Part shown: positions 3,967-45,584 of the stretch, one piece after another
How positions within the stretch are numbered: position 1 is the first letter of the stretch
Layout: every line of letters starts with the position of its first letter
Virus record (IMG/VR): IMGVR_UViG_3300029288_000055
Span: 298,764-362,763 of that record
Source of the DNA: a virus
Lineage: Duplodnaviria; Heunggongvirae; Uroviricota; Caudoviricetes
Length of the DNA stretch: 64,000 nucleotides
Strand: one strand, 5' to 3'
The notes under the pieces: model-generated
Seen by the model: the letters and a program-made list of their open reading frames with translations, nothing else
Told to the model about the DNA's origin: nothing
The model's database searches: none
Translations under genes and position numbers: made by a program

Positions 3967-4470
3967 ATGTTTAAAAAATCGGAAGAAAACGGTGAAGTGA
4001 AAGAAAATACAGGAAAACTAATAATGGGTTTAGCTGTTGTTTCTTTTTTGTTTTTTGTGAGTTACGATGTTATAACACATACTAACGGAAAAAAATTGGG
4101 CGAACCAGTTTCTATTCAGAAATACAATACTTTAGAGAAACGCATGAACTATCTTTACTATGAAAACATTGTAAAAAATCAAATACTTTATGATCTGGTG
4201 GTTACAAAGAAATTGGATTCTTCATTTGTATTTTTAGTGTCTGAGCATGTACCTTTGTTTATATTAAATTCTAAAGACAAAAATGTACTACCTGATAGTT
4301 TACCTGATAAAAGACTATTGGCATTGAAATTAAATGCTGTATGCGCTGACTGGTACGAAAGCATACCCTTTATGTTCATGGATGCAAAACATGATAGCGC
4401 ATGGGTGTTAAAGTCTGATAGTTATAAGATTTCAATAGAAATGGCAACCAAATTAAGAACCAAACGATAA
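3967..4470 (+). CDS. hypothetical protein with an N-terminal TM helix (167 aa)
   Basis: ORF track. Confidence 0.55.
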   Translation: MFKKSEENGEVKENTGKLIMGLAVVSFLFFVSYDVITHTNGKKLGEPVSIQKYNTLEKRMNYLYYENIVKNQILYDLVVTKKLDSSFVFLVSEHVPLFILNSKDKNVLPDSLPDKRLLALKLNAVCADWYESIPFMFMDAKHDSAWVLKSDSYKISIEMATKLRTKR

Positions 4471-4928
4471 TGATCGATAAACTCACGAACGCAATTTTTA
4501 CTGACCTGCTTTATGTAGGTACAAAGAAACCAATGGGATATCTCCCACTTTACACAATTGAGCAGTATGGTGGTGAGGGTGCATTAACTCAATTGATTCA
4601 TTGGACTAAAAATAATAATTATAATTGCAGATGTTGGGATGAACAGTTTTGTAGCATTCTTTCTGGTGCTTTATATGTTTGGGATGAATTAATGCTTGGA
4701 GAAGTACTTAATAAGTATAAAGATATTCTCATTGAGTCTGAAATTCCAATTGAACCAGAAGAATTTGTTAACTATATTGTAAAAAATACAGTTCTTTCAG
4801 AGGTAAATCTTCCTGTACATATCATTATAGGATATGCTTATAATGACAAACGTTTCAGAGGCAAGACACTTGAAGAAAATATTGCGATACGTGAGAAAGA
4901 CTCCGCATATGTAAAAATTAATAAATAA
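4470..4928 (+). CDS. hypothetical protein (152 aa)
   Basis: ORF track. ATGA-type overlap with the upstream gene. Confidence 0.55.
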   Translation: MIDKLTNAIFTDLLYVGTKKPMGYLPLYTIEQYGGEGALTQLIHWTKNNNYNCRCWDEQFCSILSGALYVWDELMLGEVLNKYKDILIESEIPIEPEEFVNYIVKNTVLSEVNLPVHIIIGYAYNDKRFRGKTLEENIAIREKDSAYVKINK

Positions 4929-4939
4929 TTAGAAAAAAT

Positions 4940-5272
4940 ATGAAAACAAAAGCATTTTTATTCGTTCTTTTCTTTGCAATTATAGCTGTTAGTTGTGCTG
5001 AAAAAGGTACGACACGTCAAAAATTAAACGGTGATGAAGTCACACTTCCTGATGAACTTAAAGGATTAAAAGTATTCACTGTTGCAACTGGTGGTGGCAA
5101 TTATGTTAAAGTTGCTGTACTTAATGGTCAGGTAAATTCACTTACCTATCCCGTTGGTAAATATCAACAAACTACAATTGTAGTTAATAAAGATCGTTAT
5201 AATGAAAGATTAATTGAAGCAGATAAAATCCTTTTTGAAAACGATGAAATGATTTTAATTAAAAAGAAATAG
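4940..5272 (+). CDS. putative lipoprotein (110 aa)
   Basis: Signal peptide MKTKAFLFVLFFAIIAVSC|AEKG with a lipobox Cys. Confidence 0.55.
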   Translation: MKTKAFLFVLFFAIIAVSCAEKGTTRQKLNGDEVTLPDELKGLKVFTVATGGGNYVKVAVLNGQVNSLTYPVGKYQQTTIVVNKDRYNERLIEADKILFENDEMILIKKK

Positions 5273-5274
5273 TT

Positions 5275-5700
5275 ATGTCAAAAATAATTATCTACAAGAA
5301 AACTGAACTCCTTAAGGCAATGAAACGTGTTTTAAAGGAGTATAAAAATAATATACATATTGCAAGTGTTGCTATCTGTCCTCTTTGTTTATTATATAAT
5401 AAGGACGATGATAAAAGGCATATAGGTCATGAATGTAGGTTATGCCCGATGCATGTTTTTCATAAGTCATATGAACATGGTGGAGATTTCTATTCTTGTA
5501 TAACTCGCAAATGCAAACCTGTTAATTGTGAAGAAGATTATACTAAGGACACAAATGAACTAAAAGCAGTAATTGACCTTTATGAAGAAGCAATAAATAC
5601 TGTTGAAGGCATGACAGCCAGTCAATTGAATGAACCAAAGGCATTCATGTTTTTAATTAAAATAGACAAACTGGTTGCAAAGAAATATTGTTTGGTGTAA
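5275..5700 (+). CDS. hypothetical Cys-rich protein (141 aa)
   Basis: ORF track. CPLC...HECRLCPMH...C..C. Confidence 0.5.
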   Translation: MSKIIIYKKTELLKAMKRVLKEYKNNIHIASVAICPLCLLYNKDDDKRHIGHECRLCPMHVFHKSYEHGGDFYSCITRKCKPVNCEEDYTKDTNELKAVIDLYEEAINTVEGMTASQLNEPKAFMFLIKIDKLVAKKYCLV

Positions 5701-7260: not shown

Positions 7261-7761
7261 ATGGATTTCAAATCAAAAAGACTTTACAAAAAAAGAGCAA
7301 AACAATATTTTTGTTTGGCTTGGGGATTAACATTTTTATTCTTTCTATTTGGAATGGCATGTATTATAGCACTTGTTACATCAACCCATCTTATTGACAA
7401 TTCTAAAGGTGATGGTTTTGGGATAATGTTATTATTTGTATCTCCATTAATTTTTGCTATGATATCTGGCATTATCGGTCAATTCTTTGTAGATAGAAGG
7501 TGTAAATATAAAGCACAAATTCTTGAATATCGCCAGAGGAAATTCTTTACACAGACTATGAATTTAATTACATCGGGTAAATTAAATGAAGCCATTGATG
7601 TATATACAGAATTAGTTACTAAACAAGATTTCCGCAGGTTCTTATATCCATTTTTTCTTAACGAATTCTTACATTCAACTAATGAAGATCAAAAGAAAAA
7701 AGGTGAAGAAAAACTGGCTACAGTACTTGAAATATATAATCCAAATGATGTAAAATTTTAA
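7261..7761 (+). CDS. membrane protein (166 aa, about 3 TM)
   Basis: ORF track. Hydrophobic helices. Confidence 0.55.
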   Translation: MDFKSKRLYKKRAKQYFCLAWGLTFLFFLFGMACIIALVTSTHLIDNSKGDGFGIMLLFVSPLIFAMISGIIGQFFVDRRCKYKAQILEYRQRKFFTQTMNLITSGKLNEAIDVYTELVTKQDFRRFLYPFFLNEFLHSTNEDQKKKGEEKLATVLEIYNPNDVKF

Positions 7762-31414: not shown

Positions 31415-31854
31415 AATATATATTTTCCTGTTTTGTTTTTATTTATTATTATTTTTGCTGCCACCTGTAAACCAACCTCTAAAGCTTCTTCATAAGTTTT
31501 GAACCCTTCAAAGATAGTCTTTCCCAAGTAATTATTCATACTTTTAGTCTTATTTTTTCTTTCGACCATATAAAAGTAACCATTTCCACTGGAACATCCA
31601 AATGTTCTATAATTTACTTCAACAAGTAAATTATGTTTTACTCTGAACCATTTCTTTAAAAGACTTTGTGTAGGGGCAGGATAATAAATACCATCATAAG
31701 TAAGATCAAGATTTCTTGTACCATCTTCATGATAAGGAAGTGTGGTACTAAGCCAGTCATTTGTCCTGCCTTTGAAAGTGAAACTTGCTTTATGTGCAAG
31801 TTTCGATGTAGCAAAAGATATAATATCTTCTTTAAGGTCTGGTTTAACTTTCAT
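31411..31854 (-). CDS. hypothetical protein (about 147 aa)
   Basis: The track ORF 31411..31998 overlaps the upstream gene by 155 nt. The internal Met (MKVKPDLKED...) at 31854 is the likelier start. Confidence 0.4.
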   Translation of the reverse strand: MKVKPDLKEDIISFATSKLAHKASFTFKGRTNDWLSTTLPYHEDGTRNLDLTYDGIYYPAPTQSLLKKWFRVKHNLLVEVNYRTFGCSSGNGYFYMVERKNKTKSMNNYLGKTIFEGFKTYEEALEVGLQVAAKIIINKNKTGKYIL

Positions 31855-32617
31855 CACTTTTACCAATTGTAAACATTGCTGGGTTGACAACACCTGTAGA
31901 ATTTTCTGCACCCCATTCTTTATTATGCCACTTGCGGAGTGCTTCACCGTGTTTCCAACTATGAACAAGTATTGACACTGCCATACCATACATTGCACCT
32001 GTAATACCCATGAAATCTACTTGTTTGCTGCAATTTTCTGCATGAGCAATCATACAGGTAACATCAGGATTTTCAATATTTTTGTCTGCAAATTCTTTTT
32101 GTAAAAGTTTTGCCCAACCTTCAGCATATTCAAAACATGCAAGACCATAACCATCACCTTTTTGAACAGCTTTCCAGTCATCATACTTTTTTTGATCAAG
32201 AATTTCAATTTCAATACCTTTGACCTTTTCTTCAAACAGTTTGCGTTCTTCGTCTTCTTTTGCCCTGTATGCTGCTGATTCAATTTTTTGCTTTTCTTCT
32301 TGTGCTTTTTCACGTTTGTCAAGTTCTACCAGAACTTCGGGTTCATATTGTGCGTAGCATTCAGGACCGACCTGTCGCCACTCCATGATATGAGCATTCT
32401 GATAGTCTCTTTCGAGCCATTCGAGATTGGTGTCTTTATTTACCAAACACTTAATACTGTTGAAATCAAATACAACTATGGTATTATCAATATTAAGTTT
32501 TGTGTTTCTGTAAAGCACAGTTTCTCTTGCTCTTTCAGCTACTTTTGGAAACCAGTCACCACAACAGGTACTAATTGTAATTGTTTGGTTTTTATTAACA
32601 ATTTTTTTCTTTTTCAT
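31844..32617 (-). CDS. hypothetical protein (257 aa)
   Basis: ORF track. Confidence 0.6.
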   Translation of the reverse strand: MKKKKIVNKNQTITISTCCGDWFPKVAERARETVLYRNTKLNIDNTIVVFDFNSIKCLVNKDTNLEWLERDYQNAHIMEWRQVGPECYAQYEPEVLVELDKREKAQEEKQKIESAAYRAKEDEERKLFEEKVKGIEIEILDQKKYDDWKAVQKGDGYGLACFEYAEGWAKLLQKEFADKNIENPDVTCMIAHAENCSKQVDFMGITGAMYGMAVSILVHSWKHGEALRKWHNKEWGAENSTGVVNPAMFTIGKSDES

Positions 32618-37605: not shown

Positions 37606-37637
37606 TTTATACGTAAACGAAATATAAAAGGTTACAA
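37606..37637 (-). promoter_or_regulatory. promoter-like motif TTGTAAC-N17-CGTATAAA (minus-sense)
   Basis: The + strand reads TTTATACG-N17-GTTACAA. Confidence 0.5.
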
Positions 37638-37639
37638 AA

Positions 37640-37951
37640 TTATTTATTATCTTCGTAATTAAATTTAAACCATTCATCAAATGATTTACTGTTGCTACGT
37701 GCCTGTTCGAAAGCAACTTTTAAATCTTCCTTTGTAAAAGTGTCATTCTTTGACTTTAAGTGCTTTGCTTTTATGTTAACATAACGCTTACTTAAAGGAC
37801 GTAACATCTTATCCAGTTTTTCTGCCAGTCCAACAAAGACAGTAGTGCCTTCATTATTTACTGCAGATATACCTGTAAAAAATTCTTCTGGTTCTAAATT
37901 GTCATCAAGCTCAATTAGAATCGGGTTCAGGTTCTTGACTTCCTCTTTCAT
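37640..37951 (-). CDS. hypothetical protein (103 aa)
   Basis: The track ORF opens with a TTG. The ATG at 37951 (MKEEVKNLNPI...) lies 15 nt after the tnpB stop. Confidence 0.5.
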   Translation of the reverse strand: MKEEVKNLNPILIELDDNLEPEEFFTGISAVNNEGTTVFVGLAEKLDKMLRPLSKRYVNIKAKHLKSKNDTFTKEDLKVAFEQARSNSKSFDEWFKFNYEDNK

Positions 37952-37965
37952 TTTCAAGTATTTGA

Positions 37966-39147
37966 TTAAGTGAACTGCTTATTTGTTAAAAACAAATGTG
38001 CTTCAGAAGTCAACACTCCAACCATTGTTGGCAGTTCGTTCTGAGTTTGAGTATCCATTCCAGATACATAATTTCTTAAAGCAAAATTCTTAATGTTAAT
38101 TGCTGCATTAATATCACGATCATGAATTGTGTTGCAATTTTTACAAGTCCAAACTCTATCTTTAAGTTCTAATTCTTTATTAATTGTGCCACAAACATTA
38201 CAGGTTTTTGAACTTGATTCAAATCTACCGATTTGTATAATGTTTTTGCCCTGCCATTCTGCTTTGTATTTTAGCATATCAATAAACATGCCCCAACCAA
38301 CATCAATTATTGATTGTGCCAAAGAATGATTTTGTAACATACCATTAATATTAAGATTTTCAATAGCAATAGATTGATTCTCTCCAATTAGCTTAGTTGA
38401 AATCTTATTTAAGAAGTCTTTTCGTTGATTACCTATTTTTTCATGTAAAATAGTTAATTTATGTTTTGTTCGTTTACCTTTATATTTTGAATATTTACTT
38501 TGTATGTATTTAAGTCTTGATTGTACTATTCGTAAAAATTTTGGATTTTCAAATACTTCACCTTTGGAAGTTACGAGAAATGATTTAATTCCCAAATCAA
38601 TACCAGTAGTATTATCGTTTTCAATATTTATTTTATTTGGCAATATAATGTTATTTTCAACCAATATTGATATAAAATATTTATTTGTTGGTGTTTTAAT
38701 TATTGTAGCTTGTTTAATTGTTCCTTTAAAATTTCTATGTAAAACAATATTAATACCTTTTCTGAACTTAGGTATAATAATTTTATTTGTATTGAAATTG
38801 ACAACAATATTTTGTTGTATATTAAATGATTGTTTTGCTGTTTTCTTTTTAAATTTAGGAAAATCGCCCTGTCCTTTAAAAAATTTTGTAAAGGCATTAT
38901 CCAGATGTGTTATTGCTTGTTGTAAAGATTGTGAATTTATTTCTTTAAGCCATTCACATTCCTTCTTTAGTTCAGGAAGTTGTTTGATCAAATCAAAGCA
39001 ATTTAAATTAATTTTATTTCCAGCATATGCAGTTTGTTTTGTTTCAAGAGCTAAATTATATACAAAACGACAACTGCCAATATGTTTGTTTATTAGTTCT
39101 ATTTGTTGTTTAGTAGGATATATTCTATATTTGTATGTTTTTAACAT
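37966..39147 (-). CDS. tnpB: IS200/IS605-family TnpB (OrfB) RNA-guided RuvC nuclease
   Basis: N-terminal MLKTYKYRIYPTKQQ...CRFVYN (OrfB_IS605). RuvC-I in GIDLGIK, RuvC-II in IAIENLNI, a zinc finger CNVCG...CKNCN and RuvC-III in HDRDINAAINI. The D-E-D triad is intact. Confidence 0.85.
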   Translation of the reverse strand: MLKTYKYRIYPTKQQIELINKHIGSCRFVYNLALETKQTAYAGNKINLNCFDLIKQLPELKKECEWLKEINSQSLQQAITHLDNAFTKFFKGQGDFPKFKKKTAKQSFNIQQNIVVNFNTNKIIIPKFRKGINIVLHRNFKGTIKQATIIKTPTNKYFISILVENNIILPNKINIENDNTTGIDLGIKSFLVTSKGEVFENPKFLRIVQSRLKYIQSKYSKYKGKRTKHKLTILHEKIGNQRKDFLNKISTKLIGENQSIAIENLNINGMLQNHSLAQSIIDVGWGMFIDMLKYKAEWQGKNIIQIGRFESSSKTCNVCGTINKELELKDRVWTCKNCNTIHDRDINAAINIKNFALRNYVSGMDTQTQNELPTMVGVLTSEAHLFLTNKQFT

Positions 39148-39215
39148 TTTCTAAAAATATTATTAATTTAATATAAATACAAGAATTTATAGAAAAAAAA
39201 TATTTATTTAAATTT
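37966..39215 (-). mobile_element. IS605-family-like element carrying only tnpB (no tnpA); boundaries not resolved
   Basis: The TnpB gene has 68 nt of AT-rich upstream flank and only 15 nt before the next gene. No IS200-type TnpA (HuH) ORF is nearby. Confidence 0.4.
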
Positions 39216-39671
39216 TTAAATATCATCTTTTTTTTCGTTTTTCTGAATTTGATTAAATAATTCTTCTTCTGTGCTTGGCATTTCATTTAAGTATTCTTCT
39301 GTAGCACAATCATTTTCGAATTGTCTTTCAGCTTCTTCTTCCCTGCGCTGTTCTGCATCACGTTCTTTCATATCATCTTCATAACGCATACGTTCCCATT
39401 CTTCCTCTTGTTGTCGTTCATAATCTGCTGCTCGTTCTCTTCTTTCATAATTTCGTCTTTCTTCATCTCTTTCTCGCCTTTCATCTTCTTCTCTTTCTTC
39501 TTCACGTTTTCTTTCAGCTTCTTGTTCGTCTTTTCTGCCATCCCAATAAGCACGATCTTCACCATCATAAGCATATTTATCATGATAATAATCACTACGA
39601 TGATGTTTTTCATCATCATGACCCTGCTTATTAGCTTCGTCTTCTTCCCAAGAAAAATAATGTCTGTACAT
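39216..39671 (-). CDS. E/R-rich low-complexity (polyampholyte) protein
   Basis: ERKREEEREEDERRERDEERRNYERRER... The start is probably MYRHYFSWEED at 39671, just after the stop of 39676..39885. Both strands are open here because of GAA/AGA-rich composition. Confidence 0.45.
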   Translation of the reverse strand: MYRHYFSWEEDEANKQGHDDEKHHRSDYYHDKYAYDGEDRAYWDGRKDEQEAERKREEEREEDERRERDEERRNYERRERAADYERQQEEEWERMRYEDDMKERDAEQRREEEAERQFENDCATEEYLNEMPSTEEELFNQIQKNEKKDDI

Positions 39672-41629: not shown

Positions 41630-42205
41630 TTATAAATATAATAAACAACAGTGTTTATATTTTTTTCCTGAATTGCAAGGACAAGGTTCATTTCGACCAA
41701 CATCAATTGGTTTTGGTGGCACAAATGAAAGGTCTTCAATACGTTCCTCAATACCATTAAGATGATTAATCTCATGTTGCCAGACTTGTGCTTCAAAACC
41801 TTTAACAAATTCTCGATTTTTAACACCTACTTCATCATAATAATCAACAATTATTGCACGATTACGTTCAGCAACAATTCTTTTGCCTTTCCATGTTAAA
41901 CAACCTTCAACTTTAATTTCTTTAATACCAACATATTCAATAATATATGGGTCAATTATTAATCGCCAATTTGCTTGTGGATTTCCATTGATATTTATTT
42001 CTCTTAATGCAAACACTCTCAGCATAAATCTTTCAGTATCAAGACTGGTTTGATTTGCAGCCAGACCTACTGCATCAAATCTGGTAAATGAATAATCTTT
42101 GAATGCTTGTAATTGTTTAATGTTTTGAATAAAAAACAATTCAATGTTTTCAACATCTGGGACTCTGGGAGTCTGTTGGTTTGGTATTACTTCAAATACA
42201 TTCAT
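41630..42205 (-). CDS. def: peptide deformylase with a C-terminal SEC-C motif
   Basis: The three PDF motifs are present: GLAANQ, EGCLT and QHEINHL. The C-terminus has PCPCNSGKKYKHCC (SEC-C). Confidence 0.8.
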   Translation of the reverse strand: MNVFEVIPNQQTPRVPDVENIELFFIQNIKQLQAFKDYSFTRFDAVGLAANQTSLDTERFMLRVFALREININGNPQANWRLIIDPYIIEYVGIKEIKVEGCLTWKGKRIVAERNRAIIVDYYDEVGVKNREFVKGFEAQVWQHEINHLNGIEERIEDLSFVPPKPIDVGRNEPCPCNSGKKYKHCCLLYL

Positions 42206-44449: not shown

Positions 44450-44480
44450 TTATACGATATTTTTGTGAAAAAGTTACACT
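44450..44480 (-). promoter_or_regulatory. promoter-like motif GTGTAAC-N16-CGTATAAT (minus-sense)
   Basis: The + strand reads ATTATACG-N16-GTTACAC. The upstream gene's stop is inside the box. Confidence 0.45.
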
Positions 44481-45529
44481 TTTTCAATTAATTCATTCTT
44501 GATAATTTTATTTGTGCTCCAGTGACCATGATTATTCTGTACGTGATTTTTCCGTACAAATTTGCCACACACATTGCGAAATTCAGCGTAATGAAATTCT
44601 CTTGCAAGTCTGACCACATAACCTTCCATAGTATCAGAAGTTGCTTTCACCTTTTTATTGAGATTTTCGATCACCTTCATATCCCAAATACCTTTATATA
44701 AAACAGGCATAAGTGTAAGTCCAAGTAGTTGTGCCCATTCTTCAGTTTCGTGCCAACTCAGACAAATGTTTTTTTCATTCCAGATACTGAACATATAGAA
44801 ATATGTACTGAGTGCATTCCCTTTTTCTTTTCTATAATGAATAGCATGTTTGGCATACATATTTTCACCACAAACTCGCCAGCCTTCAGGTATTTCATAA
44901 CCTACTTGTGCCCAAAGACTTTTAACCCAATTACGTGAAGGATGTGAACCACTGTCAAGAGATCGGGCATGTGTGTATGTTTTACCAAAAGTTGTGTTTT
45001 CACCATCAAGTTTTTCACCGATTATAACTTCTTCCTCTTCAAAAACTTCAACATTAGTCATCATACGATCATCCCTGTTCATACCTTCTGACCAAGGCAA
45101 ATGATATGTTCTTGGATATTTAACCATATCAGTGAATAATCCAAGTACATTACCTTGTTTCAAAATTTTTTGTACCGATTCATCTTCGAATAATTCACCT
45201 TTGAGTCTTGTGCCGTTTTTCTGTATTTCATTTCCCCATTTATCATATTCTGCATCTTGATAGAAATGATCTGGCATTATTATTTTGGTTATACCAGCAG
45301 CTTTACGAATTTCTTCGCAACTAAGTGTTGTTTCTTCTGCTTGAATATGGTGCTTACTACATAAACTTGCACCATTATTGATGAAGTATCCCTGAGTAGT
45401 ACCAAACAAGCGTCTTTCGACTATATGGTGAGCGTCTTGTGCTTGTTCATGGCATATAATACATTTAAATCCGTCTCTTTTGAAAACGGATTCTCTGAAG
45501 GTATCTCTATCTAATAATATCTCTTCCAT
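44474..45529 (-). CDS. HNH endonuclease fused to an Rnl2-like RNA ligase (nucleotidyltransferase)
   Basis: N-terminal CIICHEQAQDAHHIVER...N...CSKHH is an HNH motif. The ligase motifs are KYPRTYHL, motif I KLDGEN, motif III VCGENMYAKH, motif IV EGYVVRL and motif V KFVRK. Confidence 0.6.
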   Translation of the reverse strand: MEEILLDRDTFRESVFKRDGFKCIICHEQAQDAHHIVERRLFGTTQGYFINNGASLCSKHHIQAEETTLSCEEIRKAAGITKIIMPDHFYQDAEYDKWGNEIQKNGTRLKGELFEDESVQKILKQGNVLGLFTDMVKYPRTYHLPWSEGMNRDDRMMTNVEVFEEEEVIIGEKLDGENTTFGKTYTHARSLDSGSHPSRNWVKSLWAQVGYEIPEGWRVCGENMYAKHAIHYRKEKGNALSTYFYMFSIWNEKNICLSWHETEEWAQLLGLTLMPVLYKGIWDMKVIENLNKKVKATSDTMEGYVVRLAREFHYAEFRNVCGKFVRKNHVQNNHGHWSTNKIIKNELIEKV

Positions 45530-45534
45530 AGAGC

Positions 45535-45565
45535 ATTATACGAAATAAATTTAAATTGGTTACAA
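45535..45565 (-). promoter_or_regulatory. promoter-like motif TTGTAAC-N16-CGTATAAT (minus-sense)
   Basis: The ATG of the HNH-ligase gene lies 5 nt downstream, which suggests a leaderless transcript. Confidence 0.5.
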
Positions 45566-45584
45566 AAAAAGAAAAACTAAGTCA

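Follow-up and report, generated by a model that had tools for sequence, protein, structure and literature searches.

On the minus strand of the window, by which we mean the whole 64,000-nt stretch of phage DNA analysed here, we identified a 1,287-bp inserted element (37970..39256) made up of a left end, a tnpB gene with an intact active site and an omega-RNA/right end with a sharp 3′ boundary; a putative target-adjacent motif (TAM) adjoins its left end, and a sequence matching its guide is carried by related phages that lack the insertion. The best reading of the locus, and in our judgement a probable one, is a tnpB-only IS200/IS605-type (IS1341-like) element that homes among related phages by means of its RNA-guided nuclease. 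All features described below lie on the minus strand.

The tnpB gene and its insertion site

The tnpB coding sequence (37966..39147) encodes a protein of 393 aa matching PF12323 (HTH_OrfB_IS605), PF01385 (OrfB_IS605) and PF07282 (Cas12f1-like_TNB), all above the curated cut-offs. Its alignment with ISDra2 TnpB (PDB 8bf8; E 2.8e-58, residues 3-357) equated the RuvC residues D184 (38596..38598), E263 (38359..38361) and D345 (38113..38115) with ISDra2 D191, E278 and D361, respectively, and residue mapping located a zinc finger, C316-x2-C319 ... C335-x2-C338, at 38134..38202. Pfam and the alignment thus agreed with the preliminary description of this DNA, which had proposed a standalone 393-aa TnpB with an intact RuvC D-E-D triad and a CxxC..CxxC zinc finger. 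At the level of sequence, the match to solved TnpB structures is decisive for the identity of the protein, which is predicted to perform TAM-dependent, RNA-guided cleavage. A blastn search of GenBank phages in distant mode returned only weak matches internal to tnpB and no related phage.

The boundaries of the element were drawn by comparison with the empty site of L027, a syntenic related phage with 70-88% nucleotide identity, and of other relatives, and are ambiguous by up to 10 nt because of a repeat at the junctions. Seven related phage loci with DNA (L027-L032 and L035) had an empty site without tnpB, and two further contigs carrying P0014, represented by gene tables only, likewise had no tnpB between the flanking genes. 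In the tnpB-less relatives the upstream gene U and the downstream gene D overlap by 41 nt, and the empty allele of L027 reads GAAGAATTAT directly followed by TTAATCAAATACTTGAAAATG. Since related phages have overlapping U and D genes without tnpB, the insertion is lineage-specific, and the idea that tnpB is a fixed or domesticated gene of this locus did not survive the comparison. Exactly this TnpB protein occurs on few contigs; L026, the only one of them retrieved, shows 100% identity to the window and is therefore the same phage.

Gene D (37640..37951) encodes a conserved protein of 103 aa and predates the insertion; its 23 homologues, at 56-100% identity, confirm that the 103-codon reading frame starting with the ATG at 37951 is genuine, as had been supposed. 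Gene U (39216..39671) encodes an E/R/D-rich protein of 151 aa whose homologue in L027 ends with LFNQILENERRDQEIKSDSN; in the window, by comparison, the tail after LFNQI reads QKNEKKDDI and is encoded by the left end of the element, which supplies the new last 10 codons of U and its stop. The gap between the U stop (39216) and the tnpB ATG is 68 nt, as first reported, and that between the tnpB stop and the ATG of D is 14 nt and not 15. The tnpB stop codon and the last base of the final sense codon belong to the flanking (target) DNA.

The left end, or 5′ leader (39148..39256, 109 nt), was defined by alignments and contains the motifs TTTAAATAAAT, TTTTCTATAAAT and GTATTTATAT, conserved in relatives. 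No significant hairpin was detected in it (DNA fold z-score -0.72), and comparing the two ends of the element revealed no left-end counterpart of the right-end hairpin, the longest common word being 7 nt; canonical relatives share GTGGGTGGG between both ends, in matching hairpins. A divergent, AT-rich left-end hairpin may be present. As already described, no tnpA accompanies the gene: tnpB is the sole gene of the 1,287-bp insert, PF01797 (TnpA) was absent among the approximately 100 neighbouring phage genes with Pfam annotations, and a regular expression for HUH..Y (Y1), a crude and weak test, retrieved nothing over the window. The failure to find either this hairpin or TnpA counts against the homing reading. 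TnpB-only members of the IS200/IS605 family are well known, so the lack of TnpA does not exclude membership. Because no left-end hairpin matching the right end was found, we do not regard the element as an autonomous transposon; in the earlier view of the gene as a domesticated or fixed nuclease rather than an active transposon, it is this non-autonomous part that stands, given the lack of TnpA and of a left-end hairpin match, while the domesticated or fixed part is contradicted by the empty sites. A candidate phage-type promoter motif of the left end common to other genes of the window, TTCTATWWAT, was discarded (3 matches versus 3.5 expected), and scans for sigma-70 promoters and terminators were uninformative.

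Canonical IS200/IS605 insertion proceeds without target duplication. The insertion at L153 is a clean one, with no duplication; both junctions of the window copy show a 10-nt repeat, TTAATCAAAT, whose first occurrence (39247..39256) is the first 10 nt past the TAM and whose second (37960..37969) is the first 10 nt of the guide/flank, where it contains the tnpB stop codon. That a direct repeat flanks the insertion is a further observation against homing. A repeat shared by the right-end flank and the left end, considered as a general feature on the basis of the window, L031/L035 and L001, was rejected, as most of 38 loci lack it and the offset controls of that scan themselves gave 9-11 nt in this AT-rich DNA. 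We also rejected a diverged target duplication of about 37 nt that would restore the C-terminus of U: past the first 10 nt, matches occur at just 13 of 27 positions (shuffle p 0.17), a level equalled by 6.7% of the 27-mers of the window.

Omega-RNA scaffold, predicted guide and TAM

The last part of the tnpB reading frame contains an omega-RNA scaffold (37970..38098) that ends in the invariant AGTTCAC and was delimited by a covariance model, R1, and by covariation. In the window, the model gave its sole strong match at these positions (106.4 bits); it scored 115 bits on L031, which was outside its training set, and did not match any of five empty-site loci (L027, L028, L029, L123, L125). Compensatory changes were present in 19 of the 22 scaffold base pairs, 95.6% of the scaffold cells were paired (75.6% in shuffles, 35-43% in slid controls), and the covariation score of 0.607, versus 0.217 in shuffles, was reached by none of 500 of them. 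Sequence conservation across at least 35 relatives ends exactly after GTTCAC, at window position 37970. Twenty-five viral tnpB loci, none of them with flanking genes in common with the window, were usable for the RNA analysis and not for empty sites. A search of the whole window against Rfam 15 at gathering thresholds matched no family, and there is no curated omega-RNA model for this element.

All four omega-RNA helices are intact in the window copy. Covariation and folding placed helix 1 (GUAUCU...GGAUAC) at 38051..38067; covariation and the MFE fold placed helices 2 and 3, nested and with the outer strands TCAGAA/TTCTGA, at 38003..38044, where over 34 sequences helix 2 is paired in 100% and helix 3 in 99.6% of cases, with many compensatory changes. 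The terminal hairpin of the omega-RNA/right end (AUUUGUU-UUU-AACAAAU, 37977..38001), identified by folding and comparison with relatives, has a sequence wholly unlike theirs, its pairing being preserved by fully compensatory changes.

The omega-RNA-like fold that had been suspected at the 3′ end of tnpB is therefore a covariation-supported scaffold, and the local hairpin CCAAC-AATG-GTTGG (38018..38031) is real, being one of the covarying helices and enclosed by helices 2 and 3. The long-range pairing of GTTGACTTC with GAAGTCAAG proposed across the stop codon found no support: GAAGTCAAG (37934..37942) is native to the downstream gene, is unchanged in the tnpB-less L029 and L030 and sits 28-36 nt beyond the scaffold end, and the TTCTGA of the tnpB-side segment has the upstream TCAGAA as its partner instead, forming a helix with 100% pairing over 34 sequences. 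The same description held that the right end and scaffold would be forced to overlap gene D; the covariance-model search puts the scaffold wholly inside the tnpB coding sequence, with its end at 37970, and for this reason the argument from compactness fails, as nothing but the guide, by definition part of the flanking DNA, extends to the downstream ATG.

The predicted guide, TTAATCAAATACTTGAAAAT (about 16-20 nt, 37950..37969), was positioned by the stop of conservation after GTTCAC and by the match in L027, and covers the tnpB stop codon together with the 14-nt spacer, extending 2 nt into the downstream ATG. Empty-site comparison identified TTAT (39257..39260), immediately 5′ of the left end, as the putative TAM. 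In empty sites, TTAT lies directly 5′ of the guide-matching sequence at four independent phage loci, namely the U/D locus, the 3′ end of a peptide-deformylase gene, a baseplate intergenic site that is empty in about 60 relatives and the L033 site; L027 carries TTAT followed by a 20/20 match to the predicted guide. The window itself carries, at 41630..41649, TTAT and a 17-nt match to the guide of the L031/L035 element.

Proposed homing and alternative explanations

Starting from these features, we infer from sequence comparison that the element is expressed, cleaves and homes. It landed immediately 3′ of TTAT, within the 41 nt that two small early-region genes of a T4-like jumbo phage have in common, and the last approximately 129 nt of its tnpB reading frame double as the omega-RNA scaffold, with four covarying helices. 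The transcript would run on into the flank, which would supply the guide, and the TnpB-omega-RNA complex would recognise TTAT plus the guide sequence, that is, the uninterrupted allele of related phages. The copy in the phage itself would be protected, with GTTCAC in place of the TAM at the right junction and a match at the left junction that ends after 10 nt. Cutting of an empty allele, arising by excision or brought in by a co-infecting relative, would probably be followed by recombinational repair from a tnpB-bearing genome, and this repair would keep or spread the element in the manner of the free-standing homing endonuclease genes of T-even phages. Published work describes a homing activity of the TnpB nuclease and a spread through plasmid populations that needs TnpB and not TnpA (PMC10055086; PMC13565253, citing PMC11870625).

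The closest TnpBs, 74-80% identical, are all found in the same phage family at other sites, and matches in bacterial genomes do not exceed 70% identity and come from tiny MAG contigs, the closest of them in Bacteroidota MAGs, a weak hint at the host. A wider proposal, which we advance as rather doubtful, is that this TnpB lineage could be resident in one T4-like jumbo phage family, having shed the TnpA-recognised left-end hairpin, and act between co-infecting phages as a gene drive guided by RNA. Elements at different loci would each find targets in the genomes that host their sisters, as at 41630..41649, and the partial target of 10 nt next to the TAM at the left boundary of the element (39247..39260) could be a non-cleaving binding site for tnpB autoregulation.

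Every related phage examined is empty at the U/D locus, so nothing is fixed there, and at the baseplate site tnpB is present in only 2 of the 61 related contigs spanning both flanks. Both observations argue against a domesticated nuclease of benefit to the phage, which by cutting the tnpB-less allele of competitors would exclude their markers or genomes and would be selected at the level of the phage and not of the element. The guide is simply the immediate flank, as in any IS, and is not retargeted; the catalytic site is intact, unlike that of exapted TnpB derivatives (TldR); and the truncated and rewritten C-terminus of the upstream gene resembles damage rather than design. We thus consider this explanation quite unlikely, although the intact reading frame and omega-RNA, the apparent loss of the left-end hairpin and the detection of the lineage above 70% identity so far only in phage-like contigs would agree with it. 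It would also agree with the deformylase site, where the sister element has co-diverged with the phage (about 78-79% nucleotide identity in element and flanks alike) and is still intact, and where the filled (L035) and empty (L029) alleles both occur in one sample, 3300037067. The equal divergence of element and flanks at this site fits long vertical retention no less than drive, a point against the homing reading.

Very unlikely is a dead-end passenger, a host IS moved once into the phage by a host TnpA, now inactive, neutral or slightly deleterious and bound to decay: the lack of TnpA and of a recognisable left-end hairpin, the few contigs with the exact protein (the retrieved one being the same phage) and the abundance of TnpB genes in phages, often with sequences identical to those of host copies (bioRxiv 10.64898/2026.02.14.705889; PMC12607003), would suit it, but the 393-codon reading frame is full-length in 30% GC DNA and keeps every catalytic and zinc-binding residue, none of the four omega-RNA helices is broken, fully compensatory changes rebuilt the terminal hairpin, which was not lost, no bacterial copy closer than 70% was found, and sister elements were kept intact across long divergence.

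As a tnpB-only insertion element with a canonical omega-RNA in a phage, the finding is an ordinary one. The phage family is a natural test bed, with filled and empty alleles at at least four loci, both alleles being present in a single sample for at least one of them. At these loci the TAM, guide and target follow directly from the sequence, and transposon homing into co-infecting phages would be directly testable there. With its compact TnpB of 393 aa, the AT-rich TAM TTAT and a defined scaffold of 129 nt, the element also joins the list of possible miniature editors.

Comparison with known systems

The phage TnpB has the same domain order and RuvC D-E-D triad as the ISDra2 TnpB/omega-RNA complex (PDB 8bf8, 8h1j), and in both systems the 3′ end of tnpB encodes the scaffold, DNA beyond the right end provides the guide, and the TAM is situated 5′ of the left end. 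ISDra2, in contrast, has a tnpA and the TAM TTGAT and resides in a bacterial chromosome, whereas the phage element, with TTAT and without tnpA, is found in a lytic-type jumbo phage, its scaffold ends inside the reading frame and its left-end hairpin was not found. The IS1341-type tnpB-only elements of the IS200/IS605 family, including the canonical relatives L003-L008, of about 1.3 kb and with TnpBs of the same subfamily (52-66% identical), have the omega-RNA architecture and the AGTTCAC terminus in common with it. These canonical relatives carry a pair of matching GC-rich hairpins, one at either end, with TTTAC located 5′ of their left end, whereas in the window copy and in its phage-borne kin the terminal hairpin is short and AT-rich, no left-end counterpart was found and the TAM is TTAT. 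The nuclease-dead exapted TnpBs of the TldR type are also TnpB homologues of phages or prophages with a conserved guide RNA; they have lost RuvC residues and their guides aim at promoters elsewhere, whereas the phage TnpB retains its triad and takes its guide from the immediate flank.

In behaviour, the element would resemble the free-standing homing endonuclease genes of T-even phages (seg, mob; 'intronless homing'), likewise small nuclease genes between conserved phage genes, present or absent among close relatives, with the allele lacking the gene as the predicted target and with family members at several sites of one phage family. TnpB homing in phages is so far undemonstrated and has been treated only theoretically, as 'non-restorative homing' into co-infecting phages (PMC13565253). 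Differently from seg and mob, recognition by TnpB would depend on an RNA guide and a 4-nt TAM and not on protein alone, and it is the insertion itself that would separate self from non-self.

The tnpB insertion and its host phage

The tnpB gene (37966..39147, minus strand) encodes a 393-aa protein with three Pfam matches above the curated cut-offs, HTH_OrfB_IS605 (66.6 bits), OrfB_IS605 (69.1 bits) and Cas12f1-like_TNB (86.1 bits), and the solved ISDra2 TnpB (8bf8) aligns with its residues 3-357 (E 2.8e-58). As counted in that alignment, D184, E263 and D345 correspond to ISDra2 D191, E278 and D361, and a zinc finger is present (C316-x2-C319 ... C335-x2-C338), which bears out the intact D-E-D triad and zinc finger of the preliminary description. 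Its observation was largely correct: the upstream gap is indeed 68 nt, the downstream one is 14 nt rather than 15, and neither the element nor its annotated neighbours include a TnpA. The identical protein is named 'RNA-guided endonuclease TnpB family protein' at NCBI. A 216-aa ORF (38504-39154, plus strand) lies opposite the N-terminal half of tnpB and is also open in the relative loci L001-L008 (46-66% identity, tblastn), which is unusual for 30% GC DNA; codon constraints on tnpB may be all that keeps it open. For cyanophage A-1(L), transcription of an ORF on the reverse strand of tnpB has been described (bioRxiv 10.64898/2026.02.14.705889).

NCBI lists the 362,763-bp source contig as a MAG of a 'Candidatus Paceibacterota bacterium'. 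Since the window holds a T4-like jumbo phage gene set (RIIB, Dda-like helicase, RNA ligase, peptide deformylase) and many small early-type ORFs, and since the related sequences are viral contigs of IMG/VR that bear baseplate genes, mis-binning of a T4-like jumbo phage is the most likely explanation. The ORF at 31844-32617 (minus strand) and its homologues (L026, 9071-9844; L028, 5098-5859) match Pfam PF25186 (Tad4).

Seven relatives (L027, L028, L029, L030, L031, L032 and L035) lack tnpB at this locus, and their upstream gene U (39216..39671, minus strand, in the window) overlaps the downstream gene D (37640..37951, minus strand) by 41 nt. Two more contigs, both bearing protein P0014, show an identical overlap and no tnpB in their gene tables. 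L027, an IMG/VR contig of 178.5 kb syntenic with the window over ~35.5-46 kb at 70-88% nt identity, reads ...GAAGAATTATTTAATCAAATACTTGAAAATGAAAG... at the locus. Aligning both junctions to the empty sites delimits an insertion of 1,287 bp (39256..37970, minus strand), with left junction GAAGAATTAT/TTAATCAAATTCAG... and right junction ...AAGCAGTTCAC/TTAATCAAATACTTGAAAATG. The insertion has rewritten the C-terminus of the U protein, from ...LFNQILENERRDQEIKSDSN in L027 to ...LFNQIQKNEKKDDI in the window, the new tail being encoded by the element's left end. Gene D (103 aa) has 23 homologues at 56-100% identity, so that this ORF is genuine, as had been argued, and it predates the tnpB insertion. 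By the preliminary description's own reasoning, related phages with such an empty site point to recent IS insertion instead of domestication, and on these sequence comparisons the domestication interpretation is refuted.

Another ORF of the region, of 351 aa (44474..45529, minus strand), with PHROG matches to RNA ligase and HNH endonuclease (region 44485-45571), is another cassette that varies by presence and absence, and may be a free-standing module of the homing-endonuclease type. It is absent from L027, where its flanks lie 6 nt apart, and L035 and L036 carry an RNA-ligase gene at the corresponding place.

The omega-RNA scaffold and its 3' boundary

For the RNA analysis, relatives were gathered from viral, metagenomic and assembled contigs. 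The 3' ends of 35+ independent copies have in common GAAGCnn, a variable hairpin and NAGTTCAC, right after which the similarity ends abruptly. RNAalifold on an alignment of 34 sequences gave four helices with 22 pairs, 19 of them with compensatory double changes; paired cells reached 95.6% (75.6% in shuffles), the covariation score was 0.607 against 0.217 and was attained by none of 500 shuffles, and sliding the partner by 1-3 columns lowered pairing to 35-43%. Running the covariance-model check proposed earlier, with a model built from this alignment, returned a single strong match in the window at 37970..38098 (minus strand, 106 bits), as well as one in L031, outside the training set (115 bits), and none in five empty-site loci (L027, L028, L029, L123, L125). 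Folded by itself, the window sequence gives identical helices.

The scaffold was expected to overlap gene D; it lies instead entirely within the tnpB reading frame, the outcome that the preliminary description had itself named as undercutting its overlap argument, which is thereby refuted. The scaffold stops two bases into the final sense codon, and the tnpB stop codon is therefore flank DNA. The hairpin CCAAC-AATG-GTTGG is genuine and forms the apical stem of helix 3, and the terminal hairpin ATTTGTT-TTT-AACAAAT has taken the place of the GC-rich CCCATCGCC-TTT-GGCGTGGG seen in distant relatives, the pairing being preserved. The proposed long-range partner in gene D, GAAGTCAAG, pairs by coincidence. 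This 9-mer belongs to the ancestral sequence of D, is unchanged in L029 and L030, which lack tnpB, and lies past any plausible guide.

TAM, guide and predicted targets

Taking the sequence after GTTCAC as the guide, and reading the TAM by comparing filled sites with empty relatives, we found TTAT directly 5' of the guide match at all four sites with filled/empty pairs. The window occupies the U/D overlap site (empty, AATTAT/TTAATCAAAT...), and the 3' end of the peptide deformylase gene is filled, antisense to phage genes, in L031, L032, L035 and L036 and empty, as (A/T)(A/T)TTAT/AAATATAATAAACAAC, in the window, L027, L028 and L029. The baseplate intergenic site (empty, ...TTTGTTTTTTAT/GTATCTTATGG) is filled in L037-L040, L121 and L153, the last with a 46%-identical TnpB, and empty in 59 of 61 related contigs spanning both flanks; the fourth site is filled in L033 and reads CTTTAT/AAAGGAAACCTTTAAAA in L201 and L202.

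The predicted target of the window element would be TTAT followed by TTAATCAAATACTTGAAAAT. L027 matches the window guide at 20 of 20 positions, L029 and L030 mismatch it at positions 2 and 18 and L028 at more positions, and L031 and L032 have no TAM there; a second 16-nt match was sought in the window's own genome and none was found. Conversely, window 41630-41649 (plus strand), at the 3' end of the deformylase gene (41630..42205), carries TTAT and then AAATATAATAAACAAC, a TAM followed by 17 nt that match the sister element's guide in L031, L032, L035 and L036, which makes the window phage a predicted target of that element. Empty (L029) and filled (L035) deformylase sites come from one JGI sample, 3300037067. 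In L035 (4168-4171) and L031 the element's terminal GTTCAC supplies the deformylase stop codon (TGA, opposite strand), the mirror case of the window.

ISDra2 TnpB cleaves 15-21 bp past its TAM. In L033 (4171-4215), homology to L201 and L202 (reverse strand, ~2390-2500) runs 17 nt past GTTCAC (AAAGGAAACCTTTAAAA), after which about 75 nt present in both are missing; this deletion, beginning ~17 nt beyond the TAM, starts inside that range.

Lineage and comparison with known elements

The closest TnpBs (74-80% identical) all belong to phages of the window's family, where they sit at loci other than this one and in both orientations. The best matches in representative bacterial genomes are 55-70% identical, on 1.5-3.5-kb MAG contigs, and the next tier is ~42% (Bacillales). 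L031 and L035 differ as much in the element at the deformylase site as in its flanks (~78-79% nt), which indicates that an intact copy has been kept for a long time. The baseplate site, downstream of a baseplate-cluster gene, holds two highly dissimilar TnpB elements at exactly one point, TTAT/GTATCTTATGG (L037, 3001-4180; L153, ~4340-5595), between flanks 74-76% identical. The L037 TnpB shares 76% and the L153 TnpB 46% identity with the window protein, and the two elements are only 65% nt identical to one another over 341 nt, which indicates that the site was re-used or an earlier element replaced.

Canonical relatives, the IS1341-type tnpB-only elements L003-L008, carry one GC-rich hairpin at both ends, with GTGGGTGGG in common, and TTTAC 5' of the left end, whereas no left-end counterpart of the right-end hairpin was seen in the window copy or its phage-borne kin, nor any significant fold in the window left end (z -0.72). 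Downstream of tnpB in L005 (~7290-7350; also L006/L056) lies a geneless solo mini-element, a left-end-like start fused to a right-end terminus (...TTTTTACACATTAGGAGCGAAAGCCCACTCATCAGCTTTGCTGTGGGTGGGTAGTTCAC), and L005 and L006 each hold a second, partial tnpB copy. Other departures from the canonical IS200/IS605 picture are the missing TnpA and a 10-nt direct repeat, TTAATCAAAT, flanking the insertion (39256..39247 and 37969..37960). This repeat extends no further and is not general in the family; it could stem from a microhomology-mediated event, or might be a coincidence with a left-end terminus, as the left end of L153 likewise starts ATCAAAT. The clean junctions TTAT/...GTTCAC/ speak for a reaction of the TnpA type, provided in trans.

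The element is best read as a non-autonomous, tnpB-only member of the IS200/IS605 family, with a TnpB ribonucleoprotein that would target the empty allele; such homing-type transposon retention is an established TnpB role (PMC10055086). With natural filled/empty allele pairs in this phage family, RNA-guided 'intronless homing' could be tested. The window tnpB is not the first of its kind, since phage-borne TnpB genes were reported previously (PMC12607003; bioRxiv 10.64898/2026.02.14.705889). Spread in plasmid populations needs TnpB, not TnpA, according to a passage of PMC13565253 that cites PMC11870625; homing into co-infecting phages is treated in PMC13565253 as a theoretical case only.
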